Shown piece after piece: positions 76 to 12,904 of a stretch of 64,000 nt of DNA. The DNA is from Parcubacteria group bacterium. GTDB taxonomy: Bacteria > Patescibacteriota > Minisyncoccia > 2-02-FULL-40-12. The DNA is taken from assembly GCA_016186395.1 (NCBI GenBank), contig JACPLU010000001.1, positions 5,036 to 69,035 on the forward strand, read 5' to 3'. The first letter of the stretch is position 1, and every line of letters begins with the position of its first letter. The translations under genes and the position numbers were made by a program. The notes beneath the pieces were generated by a model, which was not told where the DNA came from, searched no databases, and saw nothing but the letters and a program-made list of their open reading frames with translations.

Positions 76-768
76 TTGCTCAAGAATATTAAGGGTCTCA
101 CTCCAGTAGTTATTATTTTTATTGTTCTCGCCGTTGCCGCGGTTGGATATTTGGGGTTGAATTCTACAAGCTGTATTGATTTTACTACTGGAAAGGATGG
201 TCAAATATATATTTGTCAGACTTATTTCAAAAAACTGGTTAATAAATTTTCAGATTTTCAATCTCAAGTCGAACAAATCTCCGATACATCAGGTTGGAAA
301 ACGTATCGGAATGATCAGTACGGATTTGAGGTAAAGTATCCGCCTGAATGGAGTATAGAAGAAAAATATAACTATTCCGTAGACCGTGTTTATATTCGGG
401 GTAAAGGAGATGCAATGGTTCTTATCGCACCGATTGGTTGGGCAACAGGACGCGGAGGAACTATTAGGATAGAAAATTCTGATATATTCATTGATCGCTT
501 AAGGGCCACGAAAGAAACAAGTTTGACGGAAAGTGGTGACGAGTTCTCAAGTTTTATAAGGTTAGTTGATGTCCCTAGGGCATGGACATCAGAGAATTTT
601 ATAATCACCGACGCTAACATTATTGACGAAAGGATAGAGTGCGGAAAACCAGTGTCATCTGATGGAGAATGTGAGTTCGGTGACGGGGTGCGTTATTTTG
701 GCAGTACCAATATTCAAGATCAAAAGACTATTAATTCTATTCTTTCTACCTTCAAATTTATAGATTAA
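76..768 (+). CDS. Hypothetical membrane-anchored or secreted protein (N-terminal TM/signal segment, TTG start)
   Basis: 230-aa ORF with a hydrophobic N-terminus (VVIIFIVLAVAAVGYLGL). No recognisable catalytic motif. Confidence 0.45.
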   Translation: MLKNIKGLTPVVIIFIVLAVAAVGYLGLNSTSCIDFTTGKDGQIYICQTYFKKLVNKFSDFQSQVEQISDTSGWKTYRNDQYGFEVKYPPEWSIEEKYNYSVDRVYIRGKGDAMVLIAPIGWATGRGGTIRIENSDIFIDRLRATKETSLTESGDEFSSFIRLVDVPRAWTSENFIITDANIIDERIECGKPVSSDGECEFGDGVRYFGSTNIQDQKTINSILSTFKFID

Positions 769-830
769 CTTTTCGAGTTTCATGACTTAAGCTTCAAGTT
801 TTATGTTTTAAGTTTCATGTTTCAGGCTCT

Positions 831-1178
831 ATGATTAGCGATATTTTTTGTAAAATCGTTCAAAAGGAACTGCCGGCAGAAATAGTTTATGAAGACGAAG
901 AATTTTTAGTTATAAAAGACATTCATCCGCAAGCACCGGTGCATTTGTTGGTAGTTCCTAAAAAACATTTTGATCAGATTCATGCGGCGAGTCATGAGGA
1001 TTTAGATTTGCTTGGTAAGATGGTGCTTGTAGCTGGTAAAGCCGCAAAACTTGCAGGAACTGAAGAAAAAGGTTATAGATTAATAATTAATCAAGGTCAA
1101 GATGGGGGTCAATTAGTTCCTCATTTGCATTTGCATTTATTAGGCGGAAAAGCGTTAGGGCCTAAGATAATCAGATAA
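831..1178 (+). CDS. HIT-family (histidine triad) nucleotide hydrolase
   Basis: C-terminal HLHLHLLGG histidine-triad motif. Typical ~115-aa size. Confidence 0.85.
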   Translation: MISDIFCKIVQKELPAEIVYEDEEFLVIKDIHPQAPVHLLVVPKKHFDQIHAASHEDLDLLGKMVLVAGKAAKLAGTEEKGYRLIINQGQDGGQLVPHLHLHLLGGKALGPKIIR

Positions 1179-1186
1179 GCTCAACG

Positions 1187-1252
1187 TCTAATGACTAAGG
1201 TCTAAGGCAAATTGGTTTCTAGCTTTAGACTTTAGACTTTAGACTTTAGACT
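1187..1252. repeat. Family A intergenic hairpin repeat (GTCTAAAG...CTTTAGAC with tandem TAGACTTTAGAC units)
   Basis: Contains tctaatgactaagg...ctttagactttagactttagactttagac. Related copies occur at 13128, 14424, 24743, 27427, 33982 and 37771. Confidence 0.8.
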
Positions 1253-1255
1253 AGT

Positions 1256-1522
1256 TTGGTTCAAGTTTACCGAAAACCAAGAGAAACAATCCCAAGCCTA
1301 ATCAGGCGTTTTAGTCGTGCAGTTCAAACAAGTGGTGTTTTAGATCAGGCCAAGGCTAAAAGATCTAGTCGTCGTAAGCCGTCAGAAAGAGTTATCAAGC
1401 AAAGAGCGATTATGGCTTTTCATTTAAGAAAACTTAGAATACATCTTGAAAAGGTGGGTCAATATAGTGAAGAAAAATTTGAGATTGAAAAAAAGAAGTT
1501 GAAACAAAAACTCGGACTCTAA
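1256..1522 (+). CDS. rpsU: 30S ribosomal protein bS21
   Basis: LIRRFSRAVQTSGVL...RRKPSERVIKQRA matches the S21 pattern (ALRRFKR..EK.G.L....R.YEKP...RK). Basic protein of 88 aa; TTG start, so the exact start is uncertain. Confidence 0.7.
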   Translation: MVQVYRKPRETIPSLIRRFSRAVQTSGVLDQAKAKRSSRRKPSERVIKQRAIMAFHLRKLRIHLEKVGQYSEEKFEIEKKKLKQKLGL

Positions 1523-1542
1523 AGTGTAAATTTCAACTCTTA

Positions 1543-1666
1543 GAAAAATTATATCCTTTCAGCACGCAAATTTTCTCCAGCGGGAAATTTGCTAAGTGCA
1601 GCATTAGATTTTGTTCTTTCTAGAACAAACCAAGCAATCTAATGCCGCAATTACTTCAAGGATATA
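1543..1666 (+). other. Candidate structured RNA or complex attenuator: three nested hairpins closed by a 15-bp helix
   Basis: gaaaaattatatcctt (1543-1558) pairs with aaggatataatttttc (1651-1666). Internal hairpins are gcaaattt-N11-aaatttgc, gcattagatt...aatctaatgc and ttgttct-ttc-tagaacaa. Confidence 0.4.
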
Positions 1667-1682
1667 ATTTTTCTCCCCCATC

Positions 1683-2180
1683 TTGTTAAAAGAAAGAATT
1701 AAAAATGATGTGGTTCAGGCACTAAAGATGCATGACGAAAAAGGGCGGTTAGTTTTAGGTTCTTTGCTTGCCGTTATTCAAAATAAAGAGATAGAGAAAA
1801 GGAGTTTTGCCGTAAAGAAAAATCTTTTTAGTTCCCAAGAAGAGTTAGTAAAGGCGTCGGAGCTTTCTGACGATGACGTTATTCAAGTTATTCAATCTGA
1901 AGTTAAAAAACGGAAAGAAGCAGTTGAACTTTTTAGAAAAGGTAACAGAGATGAACTGGCTCAAAAAGAAGAAGATGAAATCATAATTTTATCTGGATAT
2001 TTGCCGGAACAACTAAACGAGGAAGAGTTGAAAGAAATAGTTAGAAATACGATTAATGAATTGGGTGCGAAGGATGTTAAAGAAATGGGTAGAGTAATAA
2101 ATACTGTTATGCAAAAAGTTAAAGGCAGGGCTGACGGTTCTATGGTTAGTAGGTTGGCTAAAGATTTATTGGTTTCATGA
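1683..2180 (+). CDS. GatB/YqeY-domain protein
   Basis: The C-terminal region (LPEQLNEEELKEIVRNTINELGAKDVKEMGRVINTVMQKVKGRADGSMVSRLAKDLL) is typical of the YqeY/GatB C-terminal domain. Confidence 0.8.
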   Translation: MLKERIKNDVVQALKMHDEKGRLVLGSLLAVIQNKEIEKRSFAVKKNLFSSQEELVKASELSDDDVIQVIQSEVKKRKEAVELFRKGNRDELAQKEEDEIIILSGYLPEQLNEEELKEIVRNTINELGAKDVKEMGRVINTVMQKVKGRADGSMVSRLAKDLLVS

Positions 2181-2665
2181 AGTCAAATTTTACTTTCAAT
2201 AATTTCACGAAAATTCGGTCCTTGAAAAAGGGCTTTTTTAATAAAGTGATAAGCAAGGTTTTAGAAGAACTTAAATTAGGAAGAGAAAATTTGGCTTTTA
2301 GTTTAAGTATTGTTGATTCAAAAAGAATGAAGGAACTCAACAGAAATTATAGAGGAAAAAACAAAACCACGGATGTGCTTTCGTTTTCTTATGTTAAGGA
2401 CGGAAAACTTTCTAATGCAGAATTGTTACGTTTTATCAAAAAAGAAAAAATTGTGGAACTCGGGGATATTTTTATTGATCCGTCGGTAGCAAAGAAACAA
2501 GCCCAGCAAGTTAAAAATGACGGCCATTCTTTAGAGTATGAATTTGCAATGTTAACAACTCATGGGCTCTTACATTTACTTGGTTATGATCACGAACGTT
2601 CTAAGAAGGACGAAAAGAGGGTGTATGATCTCCAAGCTAAAATTTTAAAGGGTTTGCACTTATAA
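2177..2665 (+). CDS. ybeY: rRNA maturation endoribonuclease YbeY
   Basis: HGLLHLLGYDHE zinc-binding motif (H..H..GYDH). Overlaps the upstream gene by 4 bp. Confidence 0.85.
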   Translation: MKSNFTFNNFTKIRSLKKGFFNKVISKVLEELKLGRENLAFSLSIVDSKRMKELNRNYRGKNKTTDVLSFSYVKDGKLSNAELLRFIKKEKIVELGDIFIDPSVAKKQAQQVKNDGHSLEYEFAMLTTHGLLHLLGYDHERSKKDEKRVYDLQAKILKGLHL

Positions 2666-2797
2666 TACATATTTTGTGATTTAGGTTTCATGTTTTACGT
2701 TCCATTTTCCCGCCTTATCCACCTTTAAATTTGTAAAATAGGGCCTCAATTGTTATTGTTAAATCAATAAATTATTCTATTTTTAAATTTTTAGTTT

Positions 2798-4045
2798 TTG
2801 GCTATGCCCAAAGGTCACGTAATAACGGGTCTTGATATCGGAAACTCTGCGATCAAAGCTGTGATGGTTGAAATACATCCTGATTTTGCGCGTCCGCAAG
2901 TTATAGGGATCGGTACAGCGACTTCAAATGGTATGAGGCATGGCATGGTGGTAGATATGGAAGAGATAGTAAAGGATTTAGACATAGCGGTAAATCAAGC
3001 GGCTCAAACTTCCGGAGTGAAACCTAATAGGGTTTATGTAAATATTAACGGTTCATATATTAGAACGCAGAATTCCCGAGGAGTTATAGCGGTTTCTCGC
3101 GCAGATAATGAGATTTCCGAAGCGGATGTTCAAAGAGTAATTGAGGCGGCATCGGCAGTAAGCTTACCGCCAAACAGAGAAATACTTCATATTATACCAA
3201 GACATTTTATCGTAGATGGGCATGACCAGGTTAAAAATCCAATAGGTATGACAGGCGTTAGGTTAGAAGCAGAAGTTATGTTAATTGACGTTTTATCGCC
3301 ATATATAAAAAATTTGGCTAAGGCAGTAAATCAAAATAATTTGGAAGTAGCAGAATTTGTTTTTACTCCTCTTGCGGCATCTCGTGCTGTTTTAGATAAG
3401 AAGGCAAGAGAACATGGGGCGATGGTTTTAGATATTGGTGGCGGTTTATGCAGTATGGCGATTTTTGAAGAAGGGGATCTTGTCTATACCGGGGTTTTGC
3501 CTTTAGGTAGCCGGCACATTACAAATGATCTGGCTATTGTACTTAGAACATCTCTAGATAATGCTGAGCAGATAAAATTGGAATATGGGTTTGTCGGTAC
3601 TGACAACCTTTCTAAAAAAGATGTTGTTAACCTCTCGGGGGTTATTGGTGAAGAAGAATTTATTGTTCCTAAAAAACAAATTGCTGAAGTTGTAGAAGCT
3701 CGAGTTTTAGAACTTCTTGATCTTGTAAATAAAGAACTTAAAAGAAGTGGTAAAAATTTATTGCCGGCTGGCGTGATGTTGACCGGCGGTGGTATAAAGC
3801 TTCCAGGCCTGGTTCATTTAGTAAAAGAAACTCTTAAACTGCCGGTGCATCTTGGTATCTCAAAAGAGGTTGACGGCATCGTAAATCGTTTAGACGATTC
3901 TGTTTTTACTACTGCAGTTGGCCTTACATTGTGGGGTGCTGACAAAGAAGGGGCCTATTTAAATAAAAGACATTCTTTTCAGGTGTTTGGCAAGAATGCG
4001 GCTATAAATAAAATGAGGGATTGGTTTAAAAATTTTATGCCCTAG
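2798..4045 (+). CDS. ftsA: Cell division protein FtsA
   Basis: Actin-like ATPase N-terminus (ITGLDIGNSAIKAVMVE), a LDIGGG phosphate loop, and its position immediately upstream of ftsZ. Confidence 0.9.
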   Translation: MAMPKGHVITGLDIGNSAIKAVMVEIHPDFARPQVIGIGTATSNGMRHGMVVDMEEIVKDLDIAVNQAAQTSGVKPNRVYVNINGSYIRTQNSRGVIAVSRADNEISEADVQRVIEAASAVSLPPNREILHIIPRHFIVDGHDQVKNPIGMTGVRLEAEVMLIDVLSPYIKNLAKAVNQNNLEVAEFVFTPLAASRAVLDKKAREHGAMVLDIGGGLCSMAIFEEGDLVYTGVLPLGSRHITNDLAIVLRTSLDNAEQIKLEYGFVGTDNLSKKDVVNLSGVIGEEEFIVPKKQIAEVVEARVLELLDLVNKELKRSGKNLLPAGVMLTGGGIKLPGLVHLVKETLKLPVHLGISKEVDGIVNRLDDSVFTTAVGLTLWGADKEGAYLNKRHSFQVFGKNAAINKMRDWFKNFMP

Positions 4046-4071
4046 TTTCTTAAAACAAGGAAAACTAAAGA

Positions 4072-4098
4072 GGAACGGATTCAAGGTCCGTTTTTGTT
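4072..4098 (+). terminator. Rho-independent terminator after ftsA
   Basis: aacggat-tcaagg-tccgtt hairpin followed by a T-run (tccgtttttgtttg). Confidence 0.5.
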
Positions 4099-4214
4099 TG
4101 TTACTCCTTGCATTGTAAAGTCATGTATGATAATGAATATGAAAACAACGGTTTATGGATTTTGTAACATTTGGATCCAAATGTTAAGTGTTTCTTCATA
4201 AATCGATATAAATA

Positions 4215-5348
4215 GTGCCTCAATTAAAACCTCCTTTTGAAACCTTTGCCCGTATAAAAGTAATTGGTGCCGGTGGTTCCGGAAGTAACGCTATTCAGCG
4301 GATGATAGCTGAAAAAATTCATGGCGTAGAATTAATTGCTGTAAATACTGATGCCCAAGATCTTCATAAGTCCGGGGCACCCACTAAGATTCATATAGGC
4401 AAAAATTTAACCAGAGGTCTTGGAGCTGGTATGAACCCAGAAATTGGACGACAAGCTGCTGAAGAGACTCGTGACGAACTTCACGAAGTTATTAAGGGTG
4501 CTGATATGGTGTTCATAACTTGTGGACTCGGGGGCGGTACTGGAACTGGTGCGGCACCGATAATTGCCGAAGTAGCAAAAGATGCCGGGGCCTTAACCGT
4601 TGCTATTGTTACCAGGCCGTTTAGTTTTGAAGGAGCTCAAAGAGGGAAAATAGCTGAAACTGGGTGGAACCAGTTAAGAGAAAAAGTAGATGCTCTTATT
4701 ACAATTCCAAACGATAGACTTTTATCAATTATAGAAAGAAAAACTCCTTTGCTTGAAGCCTTTAGAATAGTTGATGAAGTTTTGCGTCAGGGGGTTCAGG
4801 GAATATCAGATCTTATTACTACTCCGGGGATAGTTAATGTTGATTTTGCAGACGTTAAGGCAATCATGGCAAACTCTGGTTCAGCTTTAATGGGTATTGG
4901 AAGGGCAACGGGTGAAGATCGTGCTATTGAAGCTGCTAAAGCAGCAATAAATTCTCCGCTTTTAGAAATTTCAATTGATGGTGCGCGTGGAGTGCTATTT
5001 AATGTTGCTGGCGGTTCAGACCTATCTATGGCTGAAATTAACGATGCCGCTAAAGTAATAACAGAATCAATAGATACAGACGCTAAAGTTATTTTTGGTG
5101 CCACTCAAGACGATGGTTTAAAAAAAGGAGAGATTAAGATTACAGTTATAGCAACTGGTTTTGGAAATGGAGGAGTTAAACCAAGGGGTGCTACAAGTTT
5201 TGGATTATTTGAGCAGGAAAATACCAAAACCTCCTTGACACCTTCTCTAAGTAATTCTCAAAATTCTAAAAAAGTAATCGATGATCTAAATTCAGATGAA
5301 GAAGAGTATGATGTTCCGGCGTTTATTCGCCAAAAAATGAAAAAATAG
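4215..5348 (+). CDS. ftsZ: Cell division GTPase FtsZ
   Basis: Tubulin signature [19 protein letters not shown], and the full FtsZ architecture. Confidence 0.95.
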
Positions 5349-5410
5349 TTGAAATTTGTGGATAATTACAAAAAAATGCCCAAGTGGCGTTTTTTTGTTG
5401 GTTTCTGGGT

Positions 5411-5449
5411 TTGGTGAATAATACTATTTCTCTTTCTTCGTCCCCCCCC
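5411..5449. mobile_element. Partial copy (left end only) of the MITE-like element, followed by a C9 homopolymer
   Basis: tttggtgaataatactatttctctttcttcg matches the left arm of the 14994 and 30098 elements, then ccccccccc. Confidence 0.55.
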
Positions 5450-5684
5450 CACCTAACTTTTGTGGAAACTTGATTAGTTTAACTACATAATTGTCTTAAT
5501 TAATATTTAGTAATTCTGTCTATTAAAATAAAAGTTAGGTGGGGGTTGACTTCTTATTCGGAGGGTTTAAAATAAGAATTAAAGTGACTCTTAGAATCTT
5601 AAATATTTATAAAAGTTAGAATTAGTTTTTGGCGCCTTCACGGCGCCGACACTGTTTTAACAAAAGAATTAATTTTTCTCAAAT

Positions 5685-8497
5685 ATGACAAATCAATTTG
5701 TTTTTCCTCAAATTTCGACAGACAATGATAAAGAAAAGTTGGTAACCAGTTCTAAGCAAGGAAACGGAAAGTCTTATGGTTTAAACTGGCCCAGGTTTTT
5801 TGGCGAAGGTGATCCCTATGACTTTATTCAATGGGAAAGAAGGACAGCAAAAATAACCAAATCTGATGGCAGTATAGTTTTTGAGCAGAAAGATATTGAG
5901 GCACCCTCTTTTTGGTCTCAAACGGCTACAGATATTGTTGCCTCAAAATATTTCAGGGGGAAGATTAACAGTCCGGAAAGAGAAACAAGTGTTAGGCAGA
6001 TGATTGATCGAGTTAGTATTACGATAGCTAATTGGGGAAAAGCCGAAGGAAGGTTTATAAGTGATCAGGATTACGAAAACTTTTTACAAGATTTGAAATT
6101 TTTGCTGATAAATCAATACGCGTCTTTTAACAGTCCTGTTTGGTTTAATGTGGGTGTTTATGAACGTCCTCAATGTTCAGCTTGTTTTATCTTATCTGTA
6201 AAAGACGATATGCAATCCATCATGGATTGGGTTCAGGATGAAGGCTGGATATTTAAGAACGGTTCTGGTTCTGGAGTCAATCTTTCTTCTTTGCGCTCTT
6301 CCAAAGAGCCTTTATCCAAAGGTGGTCATTCTTCTGGTCCAGTCTCTTTCATGAAGGCTGCTGACGGCATGGCTAACTCGATTCGTTCCGGTGGAACAAC
6401 TCGACGCGCTGCCAAAATGGTAATTCTAAATGCAGATCACCCCGATATCAAAGATTTTATTTATTCTAAAAAAATAATTGAGGACATGACTAAAGCTTTG
6501 GCTCGAGAAGGCTTTAAAGATTCAATTACCGCAGATCTTTTTGACCCTTATACTCTTTTGCCGTATCAAAATGCTAATAATTCTGTTCGGGTGACAAATG
6601 AGTTTATGCATGCAGTAAAAGAAAATCGGGATTGGAATTTAAAAGCTGTTACTTCGGGAGATGTGATTGAGAGGATGCCAGCGAAAGATATACTTAGATG
6701 GTGTGCAGAGGCCGCTTGGCACTCTGCCGATCCAGGAATGCAATATGACACGGTTATAAACGATTGGCATACGTGTCCCAATAGTGGAAGGATTAGCGCC
6801 TCAAATCCATGCTCTGAATACATGCATCTTGATAACAGCGCCTGTAACCTTGCCTCACTGAACCTTTTAAAGTTTTTGCGTGAAGATGGAACTTTTGACG
6901 TCAATACTTTTAAAAATGCCGTTGGAACAATTATTCTTGCTCAAGATATTTTAGTTGATAATTCATCTTATCCAACTGAAAAAATAACCGAGAACGCTAA
7001 GAACTATCGTGAGTTAGGACTGGGTTATGCAAATCTTGGAGCTTTACTTATGACATTGGGACTTCCATATGATTCTGATCAAGGTAGGGCGTTGGCTGGT
7101 AGCATCACATCTTTAATGTGTGGGGAGGCTTATAGGATGTCGGCTATTATGGCGTCAAAATCTGGCCCCTTTGGTGGTTATATGAAAAATGAAGGACCAA
7201 TGTTGCGTGTTATAGAGAAGCATCAAAAAGCAGCCGATAATTTGGTTGAAAATATTAGATCAGATGGTCTAATTAATGAAGAAGACCTAATTTCTAACAG
7301 TCAATCTGTTTGGTATGAAGCGTTGGAATTGGGTAAACAGTACGGATACCGCAATTCTCAAGTTACAGTGCTTGCTCCTACGGGTACGATTTCGTTTATG
7401 ATGGATTGTAAAACAACAGGAATTGAACCGGATCTTGCTTTGGTAAGTTATAAAAAACTGGTTGGCGGAGGAACAATAAAATTAGTAAATAACCAAGTGC
7501 CGTCAGCTTTAAGGCGGCTTGGTTATTCTGAAGAACAGGTAAAATTATTTCGGATCATCTCATAGAAAAGGATACCATAGAGGGAGCTCCCGGACTTAAA
7601 GGGGAAGATTTGGCAGTTTTTGATTGTTCATTTAAACCACAAAATGGTAAAAGAACAATCAATTATATGGGACATCTTAAAATGATGGCGGTTGCTCAGC
7701 CATTTATATCCGGGGCTATTTCTAAAACTGTTAATCTTCCAAGCGAGGCAACTGTAGAGGATATAGAGCAGGCATTTATTGATTCTTGGGAGTTGGGTCT
7801 TAAAGCAGTCGCTTTTTATAGAGATGGTTCAAAAACCATACAGCCGTTAAGTACGTCAAAAGAAGATAAATTAGTTGAGCACATTAACGGATATACGCGT
7901 ATAAAACTGCCAGATGAACGGCCTTCTATAACCCATAAATTTACAATTGGTGGTTATGAGGGCTACATAACAACAGGTCTTTATCCGGGTACTCAAAAGC
8001 CCGGGGAGACTTTTCTAGTTGCTGCGAAAGAAGGCAGTACCGTATCGGGGTTATTAGATACAATTGCAACTTTAATTTCTATGTGTTTACAGTCCGGAAT
8101 TCCACTTAAGACCTTGGTCAAAAAGTTTAAGGATTTGCGTTTTGAACCAGCTGGTTATACAAACAACCCGGAAGTTCCTTTGGCAAAATCAATTGTTGAC
8201 TATGTATTTCGATATCTGGGTACAAAGTTTTTAACTCCAGAAGATAAGGAAGAAGTCTTTGGACCGCCTCATGATTTTAACGCTTCTGAAAAGGATATGA
8301 GTGCGATTACTACGCTGGCCTCCATAAATAATGTTCAAGTTTCCTCGGATCCGCTTCTTTGGAATCCACCGCCTAGACTCGGCGAGGCTGGCAACGAAGC
8401 GAGTGCTCCTGTTTGTAACTGCGGTGCTTTAATGTTTAGAGCCGGTTCTTGTTATACTTGTCCTAACTGTTTTTCTACTACTGGGGTTTGCAATTAA
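5685..8497 (+). CDS. nrdJ: Class II (adenosylcobalamin-dependent) ribonucleotide reductase NrdJ, interrupted by a -1 frameshift near 7541-7546
   Basis: ORF 5685-7565 and ORF 7610-8497 both carry RNR motifs (NPCSEYMHLDNSACNLASLNL; VFDCSFK...AVAQPFISGAISKTVN; C-terminal CxxC...CxxC). Reading from 7541 in the second frame gives the continuous KIISDHLIEKDTIEGAPGLKGEDLAVFDCSF. Confidence 0.8.
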
Positions 8498-8582
8498 GGA
8501 CTTTGTCTAAATTTAAGCGAAGCGCAGAAAATTTAGATACAAAACCGGAGTAGGATTCAAAAAACAGAATGGTGTAAATTAA

Positions 8583-8610
8583 AAACTCCTAAAGGGGAGT
8601 TTTGTTTTTA
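8583..8610. terminator. Bidirectional rho-independent terminator between nrdJ and the convergent small ORF
   Basis: aactcc-taaagg-ggagtt hairpin flanked by A and T runs. Confidence 0.55.
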
Positions 8611-8623
8611 TTAGAACATTGGG

Positions 8624-8821
8624 TTATTGATTTTGGGCGAGGTATTTTGCTGCCATTGAGCCGATAAATAAAGCCAAGATTACTTGTAAAAGAGTAAAGT
8701 CAATTTTGGCTGAAAGTTGAATGAAGCCGCTAAATAAAGTTATTCTGGCGAATTCAACAAGAAGTATGAGTCCTAGCCAAAAGAGTCCTTGGCTGATGAA
8801 AAACAATATCTTTTGATACAT
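8624..8821 (-). CDS. Small hypothetical membrane protein (65 aa, two TM segments)
   Basis: Hydrophobic ORF convergent with nrdJ. No motif. Confidence 0.35.
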   Translation of the reverse strand: MYQKILFFISQGLFWLGLILLVEFARITLFSGFIQLSAKIDFTLLQVILALFIGSMAAKYLAQNQ

Positions 8822-8869
8822 GATGAGTCTCCGAATTATTTAAAATAGCTATATTATAAGCATAGCATC

Positions 8870-10450
8870 GTGGTCAAAATTTACTATCCCCAGTTAATGA
8901 AATACGACTTGAGTTGGAAGCGTTACTTGGTTATAGTTTTACATATGATTTTAAGTCGCTCAAAGATTTTTTTAATTTGTCTTTTGGCATTTATTTTTGG
9001 GGTGGGATTGGGCTCATTTGTAAATGTAGCTGAAAAAGCAGCTCTTATAATCTTTTTAGTTTTAGGAATTCTGTTTTTGGGCGTCGGCTTGGTAGATAAA
9101 AGCAAAAGTTTATGGATTTTTTTGTTGGTTATAGTTTTTGCAGGTATTGTTAGATTTAACATAGAAAAAACAAATAGAGCGCAGTTTGATGGATTTATAG
9201 GTGTAAACTTTGCCGTTACAGTCAGAGGCTACATAAATGATCAGCCGCAGATTTTTGAAGATAAGCAACGTTTCATTTTTAAAGCAGAACAGATTATTGC
9301 CAATGATTTAGTAGTCAGTGTTGCAGACAATATTTTAATAACTTCAGATTTGTATCCCAAATATAATTTTGGAGATATTTTGGAGATAGAAGGAGAATTT
9401 CAAAAGCCAACTAGTTTTGATGACTTTGATTATGCCGCTTATTTGGCGAAAGACGATATCTATGTTTTGTCGTACTACCCCAAAATTAAAAAAATCTGTG
9501 AGGACAAACCAAATTGTTTAACACACTCATTTGCAACTACCTTGAAAAATGATTTTTTCAGAATTGTTTTTAACTGGAAACAAAAATTTGAAAATTCATT
9601 AAATTATTCTGTTAATGAACCCAATGCTTCGTTCTTAAATGGTGTGATTTTAGGATCTCGTTCAAATATCCCAATAGATTTGAAGGAGGACTTTAAAAAG
9701 ACCGGCACAAGTCATATCTTTGCTATTTCCGGATGGAATATTACCATTATCGGACAGATTATAGGTGGTTTCTTTTTATTATTTTTTAGAAGGCCAGTGG
9801 CTTTTTGGTTTACCGTCGGAGTAATTGCAACTTTTGTTTTATTAACCGGTGCTTCTGCATCTGTTGTAAGGGCGGCTGTTATGGGAGTTTTAGTTCTTTT
9901 GGCATACAAAGAAGGTAGATTTTACAATGCTACTAATGCAGTTGTTTTTGCAGGGGCGTTAATGATTTTAGTTAATCCTAAAATTTTGCGTTTTGACGTT
10001 GGATTTCAGCTTTCTTTTCTTGCGACACTTGGGCTCTTATACATTGGTCCGGTTATAGAAAGATTTTTTAAGCGATTGCCGAGCCTTTTTAAATTTAAAG
10101 AAAATTTAATTGCAACCTTATCAGCTACGGTTGCAATTTTACCGCTTGCAATTTTTTATTTTCGTCAGTTTTCAATAGTTTCTGTTCCAACCAATATTTT
10201 AGTTTTGCCAGCTATTCCTTGGGCAATGCTTTTTGGGTTTCTTTCAGGAATTCTGGGTTTATTATTTAATCCTTTGGGTCAGGCAGTCGGATGGACTGCT
10301 TGGCTATTCTCTTTTTACGCGCTGGGCATTATAAAGTTATTTGCTAAATTATCTTTTGCGGTGTTTGAAGTTCGCTGGCACTGGGTTGTAGTCTTTGTTT
10401 ACTACGTTATTTTGTCATTTGTTTTAAGAAGAAATTTTAAACAAATTTAA
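8870..10450 (+). CDS. comEC: ComEC/Rec2 DNA-uptake channel protein (N-terminal DUF4131 plus competence domain); the metallo-beta-lactamase domain is a separate downstream ORF
   Basis: Polytopic membrane protein. The N-terminal domain motif DFDYAAYLAKDDIYVLSYY and the many TM segments are typical of the ComEC core. Confidence 0.75.
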   Translation: MVKIYYPQLMKYDLSWKRYLVIVLHMILSRSKIFLICLLAFIFGVGLGSFVNVAEKAALIIFLVLGILFLGVGLVDKSKSLWIFLLVIVFAGIVRFNIEKTNRAQFDGFIGVNFAVTVRGYINDQPQIFEDKQRFIFKAEQIIANDLVVSVADNILITSDLYPKYNFGDILEIEGEFQKPTSFDDFDYAAYLAKDDIYVLSYYPKIKKICEDKPNCLTHSFATTLKNDFFRIVFNWKQKFENSLNYSVNEPNASFLNGVILGSRSNIPIDLKEDFKKTGTSHIFAISGWNITIIGQIIGGFFLLFFRRPVAFWFTVGVIATFVLLTGASASVVRAAVMGVLVLLAYKEGRFYNATNAVVFAGALMILVNPKILRFDVGFQLSFLATLGLLYIGPVIERFFKRLPSLFKFKENLIATLSATVAILPLAIFYFRQFSIVSVPTNILVLPAIPWAMLFGFLSGILGLLFNPLGQAVGWTAWLFSFYALGIIKLFAKLSFAVFEVRWHWVVVFVYYVILSFVLRRNFKQI

Positions 10451-10452
10451 AA

Positions 10453-11340
10453 ATGTTTAACCTATACAACAAAGTTATCAAGGTAATTATTTGCATTTTA
10501 ATATTAATCAACGGATTAGTATTTTCACTCTCTCTAAGTCTTAAAGATAACGATGAACTTAAAATCTATTTTTTTGACATTGGTCAGGGTGACAGTATTT
10601 TTGTTGAGACTCCAAGTCGCAAACAAATTTTAATTGATAGTGGACCTTCAACAAGAGTCGTTCAAAAGCTTGGTAAAGTAATGCCATTTTTTGATCATTC
10701 AATAGACACGTTAATACTTACTCATACTGATAAAGATCATATCGGCGGGATGCCGGAAGTATTAAATCGTTTTAAGGTAAGGTCAATTTTAGATACCGGT
10801 ATTATTTGTATTACATCAATATGTGACGAGTATAATAAAGCAGTTGGAAATGAATTAAGCCATGGTGCTGTCAGAGTTTTGACGCATACCGGACAGAGGT
10901 GGGATTTTGGGGATGGAGTGTTTTTAACTATTTTAAGTCCTTTTGAGAAATTGGATCAGGTCGAGGTTTCAAAGCCAAACGAAACATCTGTCGTTGTAAG
11001 GCTTGATTATGCGGGGCGTTCAGTTTTGTTTACAGGAGACATCGGTGGGCAGACAGAAGAAAAATTAGTTCTTGCCGATATAAAACTTAAAAGCGATATT
11101 TTGAAGGTTCCTCATCATGGAAGTAAATATTCAAGTTCGGATATTTTTCTGAAGTCGATTGATCCTGACTATGCTGTAATCAGTGTAGCCGCAAAGAATT
11201 CTTATGGTCATCCTACCAAGGAGGCACTGGAAAGACTTGCAAATTCAGGCGCAACTTTGTATCGTACTGATGAAGATGGGGATATTTTACTACATATAAA
11301 CAGTAAAGGAAAGTTATGGTTAGAAAAAAACAAAATCTAA
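10453..11340 (+). CDS. Metallo-beta-lactamase domain protein (the ComEC C-terminal domain encoded as a separate ORF with its own signal/TM)
   Basis: HxHxDH motif (ILTHTDKDHIGG), then D at GDIGG, and H at VPHHGSKYSS. It starts 2 nt after the ComEC stop. Confidence 0.8.
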   Translation: MFNLYNKVIKVIICILILINGLVFSLSLSLKDNDELKIYFFDIGQGDSIFVETPSRKQILIDSGPSTRVVQKLGKVMPFFDHSIDTLILTHTDKDHIGGMPEVLNRFKVRSILDTGIICITSICDEYNKAVGNELSHGAVRVLTHTGQRWDFGDGVFLTILSPFEKLDQVEVSKPNETSVVVRLDYAGRSVLFTGDIGGQTEEKLVLADIKLKSDILKVPHHGSKYSSSDIFLKSIDPDYAVISVAAKNSYGHPTKEALERLANSGATLYRTDEDGDILLHINSKGKLWLEKNKI

Positions 11341-11954
11341 AAAATAAGAAAACAGCATTAGACTTTATTCACCCACTACATGAGCGTACCTTTGTTTTAG
11401 TAAAGCCAGACGGATTGTTGAGGGGCCTTGTTGGTGATATTCTCTCCCGTTTTGAAAAACGTGGTTTAAAAATCATAGCCTTAAAAATGGTATGGCCCAC
11501 ACGAGAACACGTTTACAAACATTATCCTGAATCAGAAGATTGGTTTTCTAACATAGGTTCAAGAACCTCAGAGTTTTTTAAAGAACATAACATGAGAGTT
11601 GAAGACCATTTTGGAACTAAAGACGAAGTCAGAATAGGGAGAAAAGTTAAAGATTGGTTGGGAGACTATTTAACACAGGGACCGGTTGTAGCAATGATAA
11701 TTCAGGGAATGCATGCGATTAAAACAGTACGAAAGTTGGTTGGGCACACTTATCCAATTGAGGCTTTGCCGGGAACCATAAGAGGCGACTTTTCGGTGGA
11801 TACTCCAACCGCAGCAAACGTAGAAAAAAGAGTGGTTAAAAATATTATTCATGCCTCGGGTAATCTAAAGGAGGCAGAACATGAAATTGAACACTGGTTT
11901 AGTCCCGAAGAAATCTATTCTTATAAAAGATCCGATGAAAGCACAATGTTCTAA
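11316..11954 (+). CDS. ndk: Nucleoside diphosphate kinase (with an insertion)
   Basis: ERTFVLVKPDG...GDILSRFEKRGLKIIALKM, and the active-site region IHASGNLKEAEHEIEHWF. Confidence 0.85.
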   Translation: MVRKKQNLKNKKTALDFIHPLHERTFVLVKPDGLLRGLVGDILSRFEKRGLKIIALKMVWPTREHVYKHYPESEDWFSNIGSRTSEFFKEHNMRVEDHFGTKDEVRIGRKVKDWLGDYLTQGPVVAMIIQGMHAIKTVRKLVGHTYPIEALPGTIRGDFSVDTPTAANVEKRVVKNIIHASGNLKEAEHEIEHWFSPEEIYSYKRSDESTMF

Positions 11955-11961
11955 AGATTAA

Positions 11962-11984
11962 AAAAAGCGTTCCATTGGAACGCT
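11962..11984. terminator. Bidirectional terminator between ndk and the sigma factor gene
   Basis: aaaagcgttcc-attg-gaacgctttt perfect hairpin. Confidence 0.6.
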
Positions 11985-11985
11985 T

Positions 11986-12660
11986 TTAAGTAGGGTTGGG
12001 AATATCATATTTTTTAGGTTTGGCTTTGACGTTGAGCATATGTTGGACTTTAAGTCTGGCTTTATGAAGCTGACTTTTTGTGGTTCCGGCTGTTACGCCG
12101 AGAAACGCACCAACTTCCTCGTGCTCATATCCTTCTATATCATGGAGAGACAAAACTGCTAAATAACCGCGTGACAATTTAGGGATGACTTGTTTTAAAG
12201 TTAAACATTCCGTGTCTAAATTGTATTGTTGGTATCCGAATCTAGGGTCGTGATCAATTTTTCTAGATGTGCCAAGAATATCATCTTGATAACTGCCTTC
12301 TTTGTTTCTTTTAGTTTTTAATGTTCTAAGCGCCATTAAGGCTTGATTTACACTTAAACGATATAGCCAAGTAGAAAATGAAGAGTTCCAACGAAAAGTA
12401 TTTAGTTTTCTTACTACCTGCCATATTGCTATTTGGGTCACTTCTTCTGCTTCGTCGGGATTGCCTATTATTCTTAAAATGATTGAATAAACTCTTCTTT
12501 TATAAATTTGGTAGAATTCAGACCATAGGTCTTCAAACTCTTGGCCATTGTTTTGATGGTTGTTAGGGTCGTACTTTTGGAGTTTTCTAATGAGTTCATC
12601 CTTGTTGTGTATGTCTAATTTGTCTTTTTTTGTGGCTACAGCTGTAGTGGTATTTGTCAT
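11986..12660 (-). CDS. Sigma-70 family (ECF-like) RNA polymerase sigma factor
   Basis: Region 2 (NPDEAEEVTQIAIWQVVRKLNTFRWNSSFSTWLYRLSVNQALMALR). Region 4 HTH (LSLHDIEGYEHEEVGAFLGVTAGTTKSQLHKARLK). Confidence 0.8.
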   Translation of the reverse strand: MTNTTTAVATKKDKLDIHNKDELIRKLQKYDPNNHQNNGQEFEDLWSEFYQIYKRRVYSIILRIIGNPDEAEEVTQIAIWQVVRKLNTFRWNSSFSTWLYRLSVNQALMALRTLKTKRNKEGSYQDDILGTSRKIDHDPRFGYQQYNLDTECLTLKQVIPKLSRGYLAVLSLHDIEGYEHEEVGAFLGVTAGTTKSQLHKARLKVQHMLNVKAKPKKYDIPNPT

Positions 12661-12720
12661 TTCCTCACCTGTTTTTAGAGAACTAATTTATTGAGGTCAG
12701 TTTAGCCCAAGTATTTTAAA

Positions 12721-12760
12721 AGTCAAACCCCATTCTTGAGTTCAAGAATGGGGTTTGACT
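12721..12760 (-). terminator. 18-bp perfect inverted repeat; terminator of the minus-strand tRNA unit
   Basis: gtcaaaccccattcttga-gt-tcaagaatggggtttgac. Confidence 0.5.
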
Positions 12761-12769
12761 TTTCTTGAT

Positions 12770-12819
12770 TGGTCAGGGTGCCGGGATTTGAACCCGAACT
12801 ACATCCACTTTCACCCGCC
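12770..12819 (-). pseudogene. 3'-half tRNA remnant (T-arm, acceptor 3' strand, encoded CCA) lacking D and anticodon arms
   Basis: Minus strand reads GGCGGGTGAAAGTGGATGTAGTTCGGGTTCAAATCCCGGCACCCTGACCA. It has a canonical T-arm and CCA but cannot fold into a cloverleaf. Confidence 0.5.
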
Positions 12820-12833
12820 TAATTTTTTATCAA

Positions 12834-12904
12834 TCGGGGTATTGGGATTCGAACCCAAATTAAATCCACCCCATGGACTCGTGCTACCGTTGCACTATAC
12901 CCCG
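12834..12904 (-). tRNA. tRNA-Pro (anticodon GGG)
   Basis: Manual fold gives a 7-bp acceptor CGGGGTA/TACCCCG, D-stem GTGC/GCAC, anticodon stem AGTCC/GGATT with loop ATGGGGT (U33, GGG, G37), T-arm TTGGG-TTCGAAT-CCCAA, discriminator A. CCA is not encoded. Confidence 0.8.

Follow-up and report, generated by a model that had tools for sequence, protein, structure and literature searches.

We describe a gene, nrdJ, for a class II (B12-/adenosylcobalamin-dependent) ribonucleotide reductase (RNR) that lies on the + strand of a 64-kb window, by which we mean the whole stretch of DNA analysed, and that reads there as two open reading frames. ORF1 (5685-7565, frame 0, 626 aa) opens at ATG 5685 and ends with ...LGYSEEQVKLFRIIS, followed by TAG at 7563-7565. 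In the -1 frame, a TGA at 7529-7531 is followed by RTGKIISDHLIEKDTIEGAPGLKGEDLAVFDCSFK..., which stays open to 8497 (ORF2) and whose earliest ATG, GTG or TTG is the TTG at 7610. The two stops, at 7565 in frame 0 and at 7529-7531 in the -1 frame, had been named in an initial annotation of the sequence, and both are present. The parts of the locus are as follows:

5685..7547, + strand: frame-0 part of nrdJ (codons 1-621), with the class II N-terminal domain and most of the catalytic barrel, equal to residues 1-621 of the intact protein P0264; past this point the annotated ORF1 is out of frame up to its TAG
7529..7531, + strand: TGA stop of the -1 frame; a frame change can lie no farther upstream
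7545..7553, + strand: lesion (1 gap and 1 mismatch in blastn of contig L167 against the window)
7548..8497, + strand: nrdJ codons 622-937 in the -1 frame (last 82 barrel profile positions, TSCPD and Cys-rich tail)
7563..7565, + strand: TAG stop of frame 0; a frame change can lie no farther downstream

Of the Pfam profile for the RNR barrel domain (PF02867), ORF1 matches positions 1-441 and the -1 piece continues at 442-523, with no gap over the junction. When the two pieces are joined into a protein of 937 aa, the profile is covered from 1 to 523 in a single stretch (E = 5e-135), with the class II N-terminal domain Ribonuc_red_2_N (PF08471, E = 3e-20) also present and the TSCPD domain (PF12637, E = 1.5e-10 in ORF2) after the barrel. 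The active-site motif SNPCSEYM is found in ORF1 and a Cys-rich tail, CNCG...CYTCPNC, in ORF2. The joined protein aligns through the junction to its best solved relative, the NrdJ of PDB entry 7b9p (E = 8e-178), and to Thermotoga NrdJ (1xjk) with E = 4e-54. All the hallmarks of a class II RNR were found, namely the N-terminal domain with a ten-stranded barrel, the NPCSE motif, and a redox-active Cys-rich tail (TSCPD and CxxC...CxxC). The pattern of ORFs is not accidental but reflects a true one-base break in the frame of a true class II RNR gene. The initial annotation had proposed a one-base frame change with a -1 continuation to 8497, which the ORFs, Pfam and the 7b9p alignment bear out, in a class II nrdJ that is otherwise intact with its C-terminal Cys motifs, which agrees with the Pfam and PDB matches.

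In the deposited record for this 85,405-bp Parcubacteria group bacterium MAG contig (NCBI), ORF1 is entered as MBI2626632.1, a 'vitamin B12-dependent ribonucleotide reductase' of 626 aa. The 3' half (7544-8497) is entered as MBI2626633.1, 'hypothetical protein HYW77_00080', of 317 aa and with an ATT start. Neither protein carries a pseudogene flag in the NCBI annotation.

An intact nrdJ allele exists and was recovered by independent assemblies. The 90% cluster that contains the ORF1 protein also holds a 937-aa Logan protein, P0264, which is ORF1 and ORF2 joined, with a junction that reads ...EEQVKLISDHLIEK... (VKLISDHL). P0264 is encoded on contig L167 from the Logan assembly of run SRR12113430, and the same contig occurs in 3 samples. 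Aligned to window positions 5515-12890 (blastn), L167 is 99.973% identical over 7,377 aligned bases, with exactly 1 gap and 1 mismatch; both differences sit at the break (7547-7552), 5 nt apart, and there are none elsewhere in the 7.4 kb. The Logan sequence at this point, AAATTAATTTCTGAT, is aligned with AAATT-ATTTCGGAT in the window, or, in a longer form, GGTAAAATTAATTTCTGAT with GGTAAAATT-ATTTCGGAT. The window thus has TTA-TTTCGG where the intact allele has TTAATTTCTG: an A of TTAATT is absent at 7547^7548, and a T is replaced by G at 7552, giving allele strings at the break of TTAATTTCT (intact) and TTATTTCGG (deleted). For the broken form, the NCBI MAG contig is the sole record. Exact look-ups of ORF1, ORF2 and ComEC (two start choices) in the contig index gave no match.

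This comparison also locates the break more closely. The initial annotation had put the shift at A-AAA-TTA, and the 12-mer GTAAAATTATTT (7539-7550) does contain the site, but L167 places the missing base at 7547^7548, so that the earlier position was one codon too far upstream. The A4 run at 7541-7544 is identical in the window and L167, and up to and including TTA (Leu621) frame 0 is the correct one. The native peptide at the junction is ...EEQVKLISDHL..., as against VK-IISDHL under the earlier placement. An extra A that restores a single ORF had been named as the observation that would point to an assembly error; such an A is found in the L167 assembly, although it lies in TTAATT and not in the A run. 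The loss of one A from a homopolymer (A5 to A4) was rejected because the intact allele has A4 plus the extra A in TTAATT. A templated mutation or mis-join from a nearby repeat was likewise rejected, since the window holds no second copy of the variant 13-mer and no repeat spanning the site.

Elsewhere the window appears accurate. Logan contigs L001 and L002 match window positions 756-5544 (4.7 kb), the only differences being one SNP and a poly-C tract of another length. Pfam domains are covered over their full length in ten other large genes of the window, and the ten largest other ORFs include EF-G, LepA, EF-Tu, SecY, a P-type ATPase, glycosyltransferases and MurB. Downstream of the break, nrdJ carries no second lesion. 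Its 3' part differs from that of the nearest relative (L163, ~86% nucleotide identity) by 58 synonymous and 8 non-synonymous changes (dN/dS 0.03), with a dN/dS of 0.13 for the neighbouring comEC in the same comparison; these substitution patterns are strong grounds for regarding the coding sequence 3' of the break as having been under strong purifying selection. A phmmer search of NrdJ against all stop-to-stop ORFs matched only its two halves, and no other RNR barrel protein was detected in the 64-kb window. An Rfam search over the window returned only RNase P and four tRNAs, with no riboswitch or other known RNA near nrdJ.

Several features were observed upstream of nrdJ. In the ftsZ-nrdJ intergenic region, the poly-C tract at 5442-5450 is C9 in the window, and two Logan contigs of the same organism have C13 and C11; this variation in length may be an artefact of sequencing or mark a phase-variable element. 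Contigs L001, L002 and L167 all end or start within ~100 nt of it. The tract and its flank (CCCCCACCTAACTTTT) are the reverse complement of AAAAGTTAGGTGGGGG at 5531-5546, forming an inverted repeat, and directly adjoining this second arm is the best promoter-like site ahead of nrdJ (TTGACT-16-TAAAAT, 5546-5573). Further downstream, in the putative nrdJ leader and ~30 nt upstream of the ATG, a GC-rich hairpin at 5629-5658 (TTGGCGCC-TTCAC-GGCGCCGA) is followed by a T-rich stretch; by its sequence it looks like a terminator or attenuator, and it has no Rfam match.

Relatives of the gene are abundant and unbroken at this position. The best 120 protein matches to joined NrdJ are all single Patescibacteria proteins of 908-986 aa, with up to 70% identity, and more than 100 single-ORF homologues are 65-70% identical over their full length. 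About 160 related loci were found, with identities of up to 68% in GTDB representative genomes and up to 66% in JGI metagenomes, and a tblastn survey of them revealed no frame change at the window's break site. In codon-level alignment, the codon count from LGY to the downstream H/Y is the same in all relatives with contiguous sequence, and the A-rich sequence is not conserved (GTG GAA GCG ATC, for example, in relatives). The single-ORF NrdJ proteins of Patescibacteria (Paceibacteria, including Yanofskybacteria, Taylorbacteria and others) share with the window the domain order Ribonuc_red_2_N, barrel, TSCPD. Compared with these monomeric/dimeric enzymes, the window copy differs only in having one base less and consequently two ORFs, and the intact allele P0264 is a standard member of the Patescibacteria NrdJ group with C-terminal TSCPD and Cys-rich domain.

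Searches with ORF2 returned many proteins of 260-300 aa beginning MGHLKMM. Recurrent breaks in this 50-codon stretch among Paceibacteria were nevertheless rejected, because the ORF2 list is biased to fragments and because the apparent frameshifts in two loci (L165 and L166) turned out to be scaffold gaps filled with N. Only a truncation in L163 and an in-frame TAG in L164 are real sequence features, both at positions other than the window's break.

L163 (ENA ERZ28563625 scaffold_103667, 1-1204; homologous to window 7676-10332) belongs to a sister species and is the closest relative found, with 94% amino acid identity in ORF2. Its nrdJ homology starts abruptly at ...LK|MMAIAQPF, which corresponds to window position 7676, leaving a fragment of 263 codons, the one compared above at dN/dS 0.03. 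Upstream of the fragment lies a gene for a PemK/MazF-like toxin (893-1204) whose stop overlaps the fragment's ATG, then an RHH/DUF7557 antitoxin (676-900) and an unrelated partial ORF, and downstream synteny with the window is kept (a 65-aa ORF and comEC). It could be a gene in pieces through mobile insertion, a recent truncation, or a chimeric scaffold. L164 (ENA ERZ28563625 scaffold_193430, about 1088-1090) is a Paceibacteria nrdJ, 64-66% identical, in which an in-frame TAG replaces the conserved Tyr in LGY(S), in the context TLRRLG*SNEQIDDISKYIL and 7 codons upstream of the window's break. It is called as two ORFs (362 aa, partial, and 304 aa); the TAG may be a nonsense allele or a sequencing error, and no evidence for recoding was found at this codon. 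A related nrdJ in L008 (GTDB CAZFTW010000035.1, 505-1697) has an in-frame insertion of ~1.2 kb in the active-site region at QCSAC|F (query residue 167), most likely an intein, and a similar case is the 1341-aa protein P0087, with Pfam intein and LAGLIDADG domains.

Three origins had been offered for the break by the initial annotation: an indel artefact, a recent inactivation, or programmed slippage. The intact 937-codon allele leaves the first two better supported, and the third is unsupported. Under programmed -1 frameshifting, the Lys tRNA would slip one base back on A_AAA (7541-7544) to give a full-length ...VKIISDHL... enzyme with the trans-frame peptide ...EEQVKIISDHLIEK..., and A_AAA does permit perfect Lys tRNA re-pairing in the -1 frame to yield a protein equal in length to its homologues. 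In the E. coli dnaX -1 site, A_AAA_AAG is preceded by an SD-like element and followed by a hairpin. The window resembles dnaX-type sites in having an A_AAA tetranucleotide a few bases ahead of the frame change, but its frame-0 codons, CAG GTA AAA TTA TTT, contain that tetranucleotide only and no X_XXY_YYZ heptamer. Nor is a stimulatory hairpin apparent: the 96 nt at 7545-7640 fold at -13.7 kcal/mol versus a shuffle mean of -17.9 (z = +1.44), and 187 of 200 shuffles fold at least as well. Neither the shift nor the A run is conserved, the former being absent from all relatives and from the other assemblies of the same organism, and the base actually missing sits one codon downstream of the A run, past a native Leu at residue 621 that frame 0 itself encodes. 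None of the three marks of a programmed -1 site (heptamer, hairpin or pseudoknot 5-9 nt downstream, conserved frame change) was found, and we consider this origin highly improbable. Improbable to an even greater degree is a functional two-piece enzyme, in which ORF1 (626 aa) and an ORF2 re-initiated at TTG 7610 would assemble non-covalently, in the manner of Pseudomonas NrdJa/NrdJb or phage Aeh1 NrdA. Split RNRs that retain function are known (PMC4520616), a purine-rich, Shine-Dalgarno-like AAAGGGG lies 5 nt upstream of TTG 7610, and the nrdJ 3' fragment of L163 has an ATG start that overlaps the preceding gene's stop. As in the Pseudomonas pair, a class II RNR is here encoded by two consecutive ORFs on the same strand. 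In P. aeruginosa, however, NrdJa and NrdJb have 734 and 229 residues, catalysis and cofactor binding both being functions of NrdJa alone (Crona et al. 2015, PMC4520616), and the split, in this and other Proteobacteria, is site specific and conserved across species, with each gene translated on its own (PMC4520616). The window break instead shifts the frame within the barrel (at Pfam position 441 of 523; 626 + ~317 aa), the second piece is without a proper start codon, and starting at 7610 would lose 22 conserved residues (ISDHLIEKDTIEGAPGLKGED) after the junction. Such a split is kept in no relative and in no other assembly of the same organism, so that a break after the complete catalytic/AdoCbl-binding part, a start of its own that keeps the conserved residues, and conservation of the split are all lacking here.

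Judged from these alignments, the break is a property of the deposited contig, either a local error or a rare strain allele, and not programmed frameshifting. Because a deletion and a substitution lie 5 nt apart in 7.4 kb that are otherwise identical, a local error appears most likely, and the same clustering in an otherwise perfect alignment argues for one event rather than two; the chance of two independent differences falling within 7 nt at the background rate is roughly 1 in 1000. The organism's nrdJ would then be an ordinary single gene of 937 codons, and in the MAG contig one A of TTAATT would have been dropped and a T five bases on read as G, producing the 626-aa and 317/295-aa frames, for example if the contig had incorporated a wrong k-mer path or the low-quality end of a read. 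The independent assembly of the same population (L167, SRR12113430) is without the indel, and we infer that its broken counterpart is artefactual and not a genuine minor allele; with moderate confidence, the nrdJ break is most likely due to a local error in assembly or consensus. Counting against this, short-read assemblers rarely introduce indels outside homopolymers, and the MAG may faithfully represent the dominant strain of a different sample. A real, non-fixed strain allele is accordingly possible, if less probable: one complex mutation (a deletion with an adjacent substitution) would have inactivated nrdJ while intact alleles persist in a near-clonal population, and the carrier would be a recent loss-of-function mutant, in a sub-population or as the dominant strain of one sample, either doomed or kept alive by deoxynucleotides from a host or by a second RNR encoded elsewhere in the genome. 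This fits with a lesion that sits in an otherwise very accurate deposited consensus, and the single lesion and strong past purifying selection on the 3' part are as expected if the mutation were very recent; damaged nrdJ genes do occur in the group, as in L163, truncated next to a toxin-antitoxin module, and L164 with its in-frame TAG. It fits less well with the intact form being recovered by independent assemblies from three samples and the broken form in one record only, the loss would probably be costly given that the 64-kb window has no other RNR barrel protein, and a clustered deletion and mismatch are also typical of read or assembly errors. We regard as very unlikely the further variant in which the deletion is real and dominant in one sample's Parcubacteria symbiont that has no other RNR and survives by low-level -1 slippage on A_AAA or on host deoxynucleotides.

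Since an intact allele exists, life without an RNR is not an issue for the population as a whole. MBI2626632.1 and MBI2626633.1 are the two halves of a single ordinary NrdJ, for which the main value of the present result is annotation clean-up, and the locus should be left out of RNR-presence or pseudogene scoring in CPR genomes and out of recoding-site mining. Were the allele real, it would be an ordinary recent loss-of-function variant, of interest only if the genome has no other route to deoxynucleotides; and were the deletion dominant in a genome with no other RNR, it would represent a natural RNR-null or RNR-leaky CPR strain.
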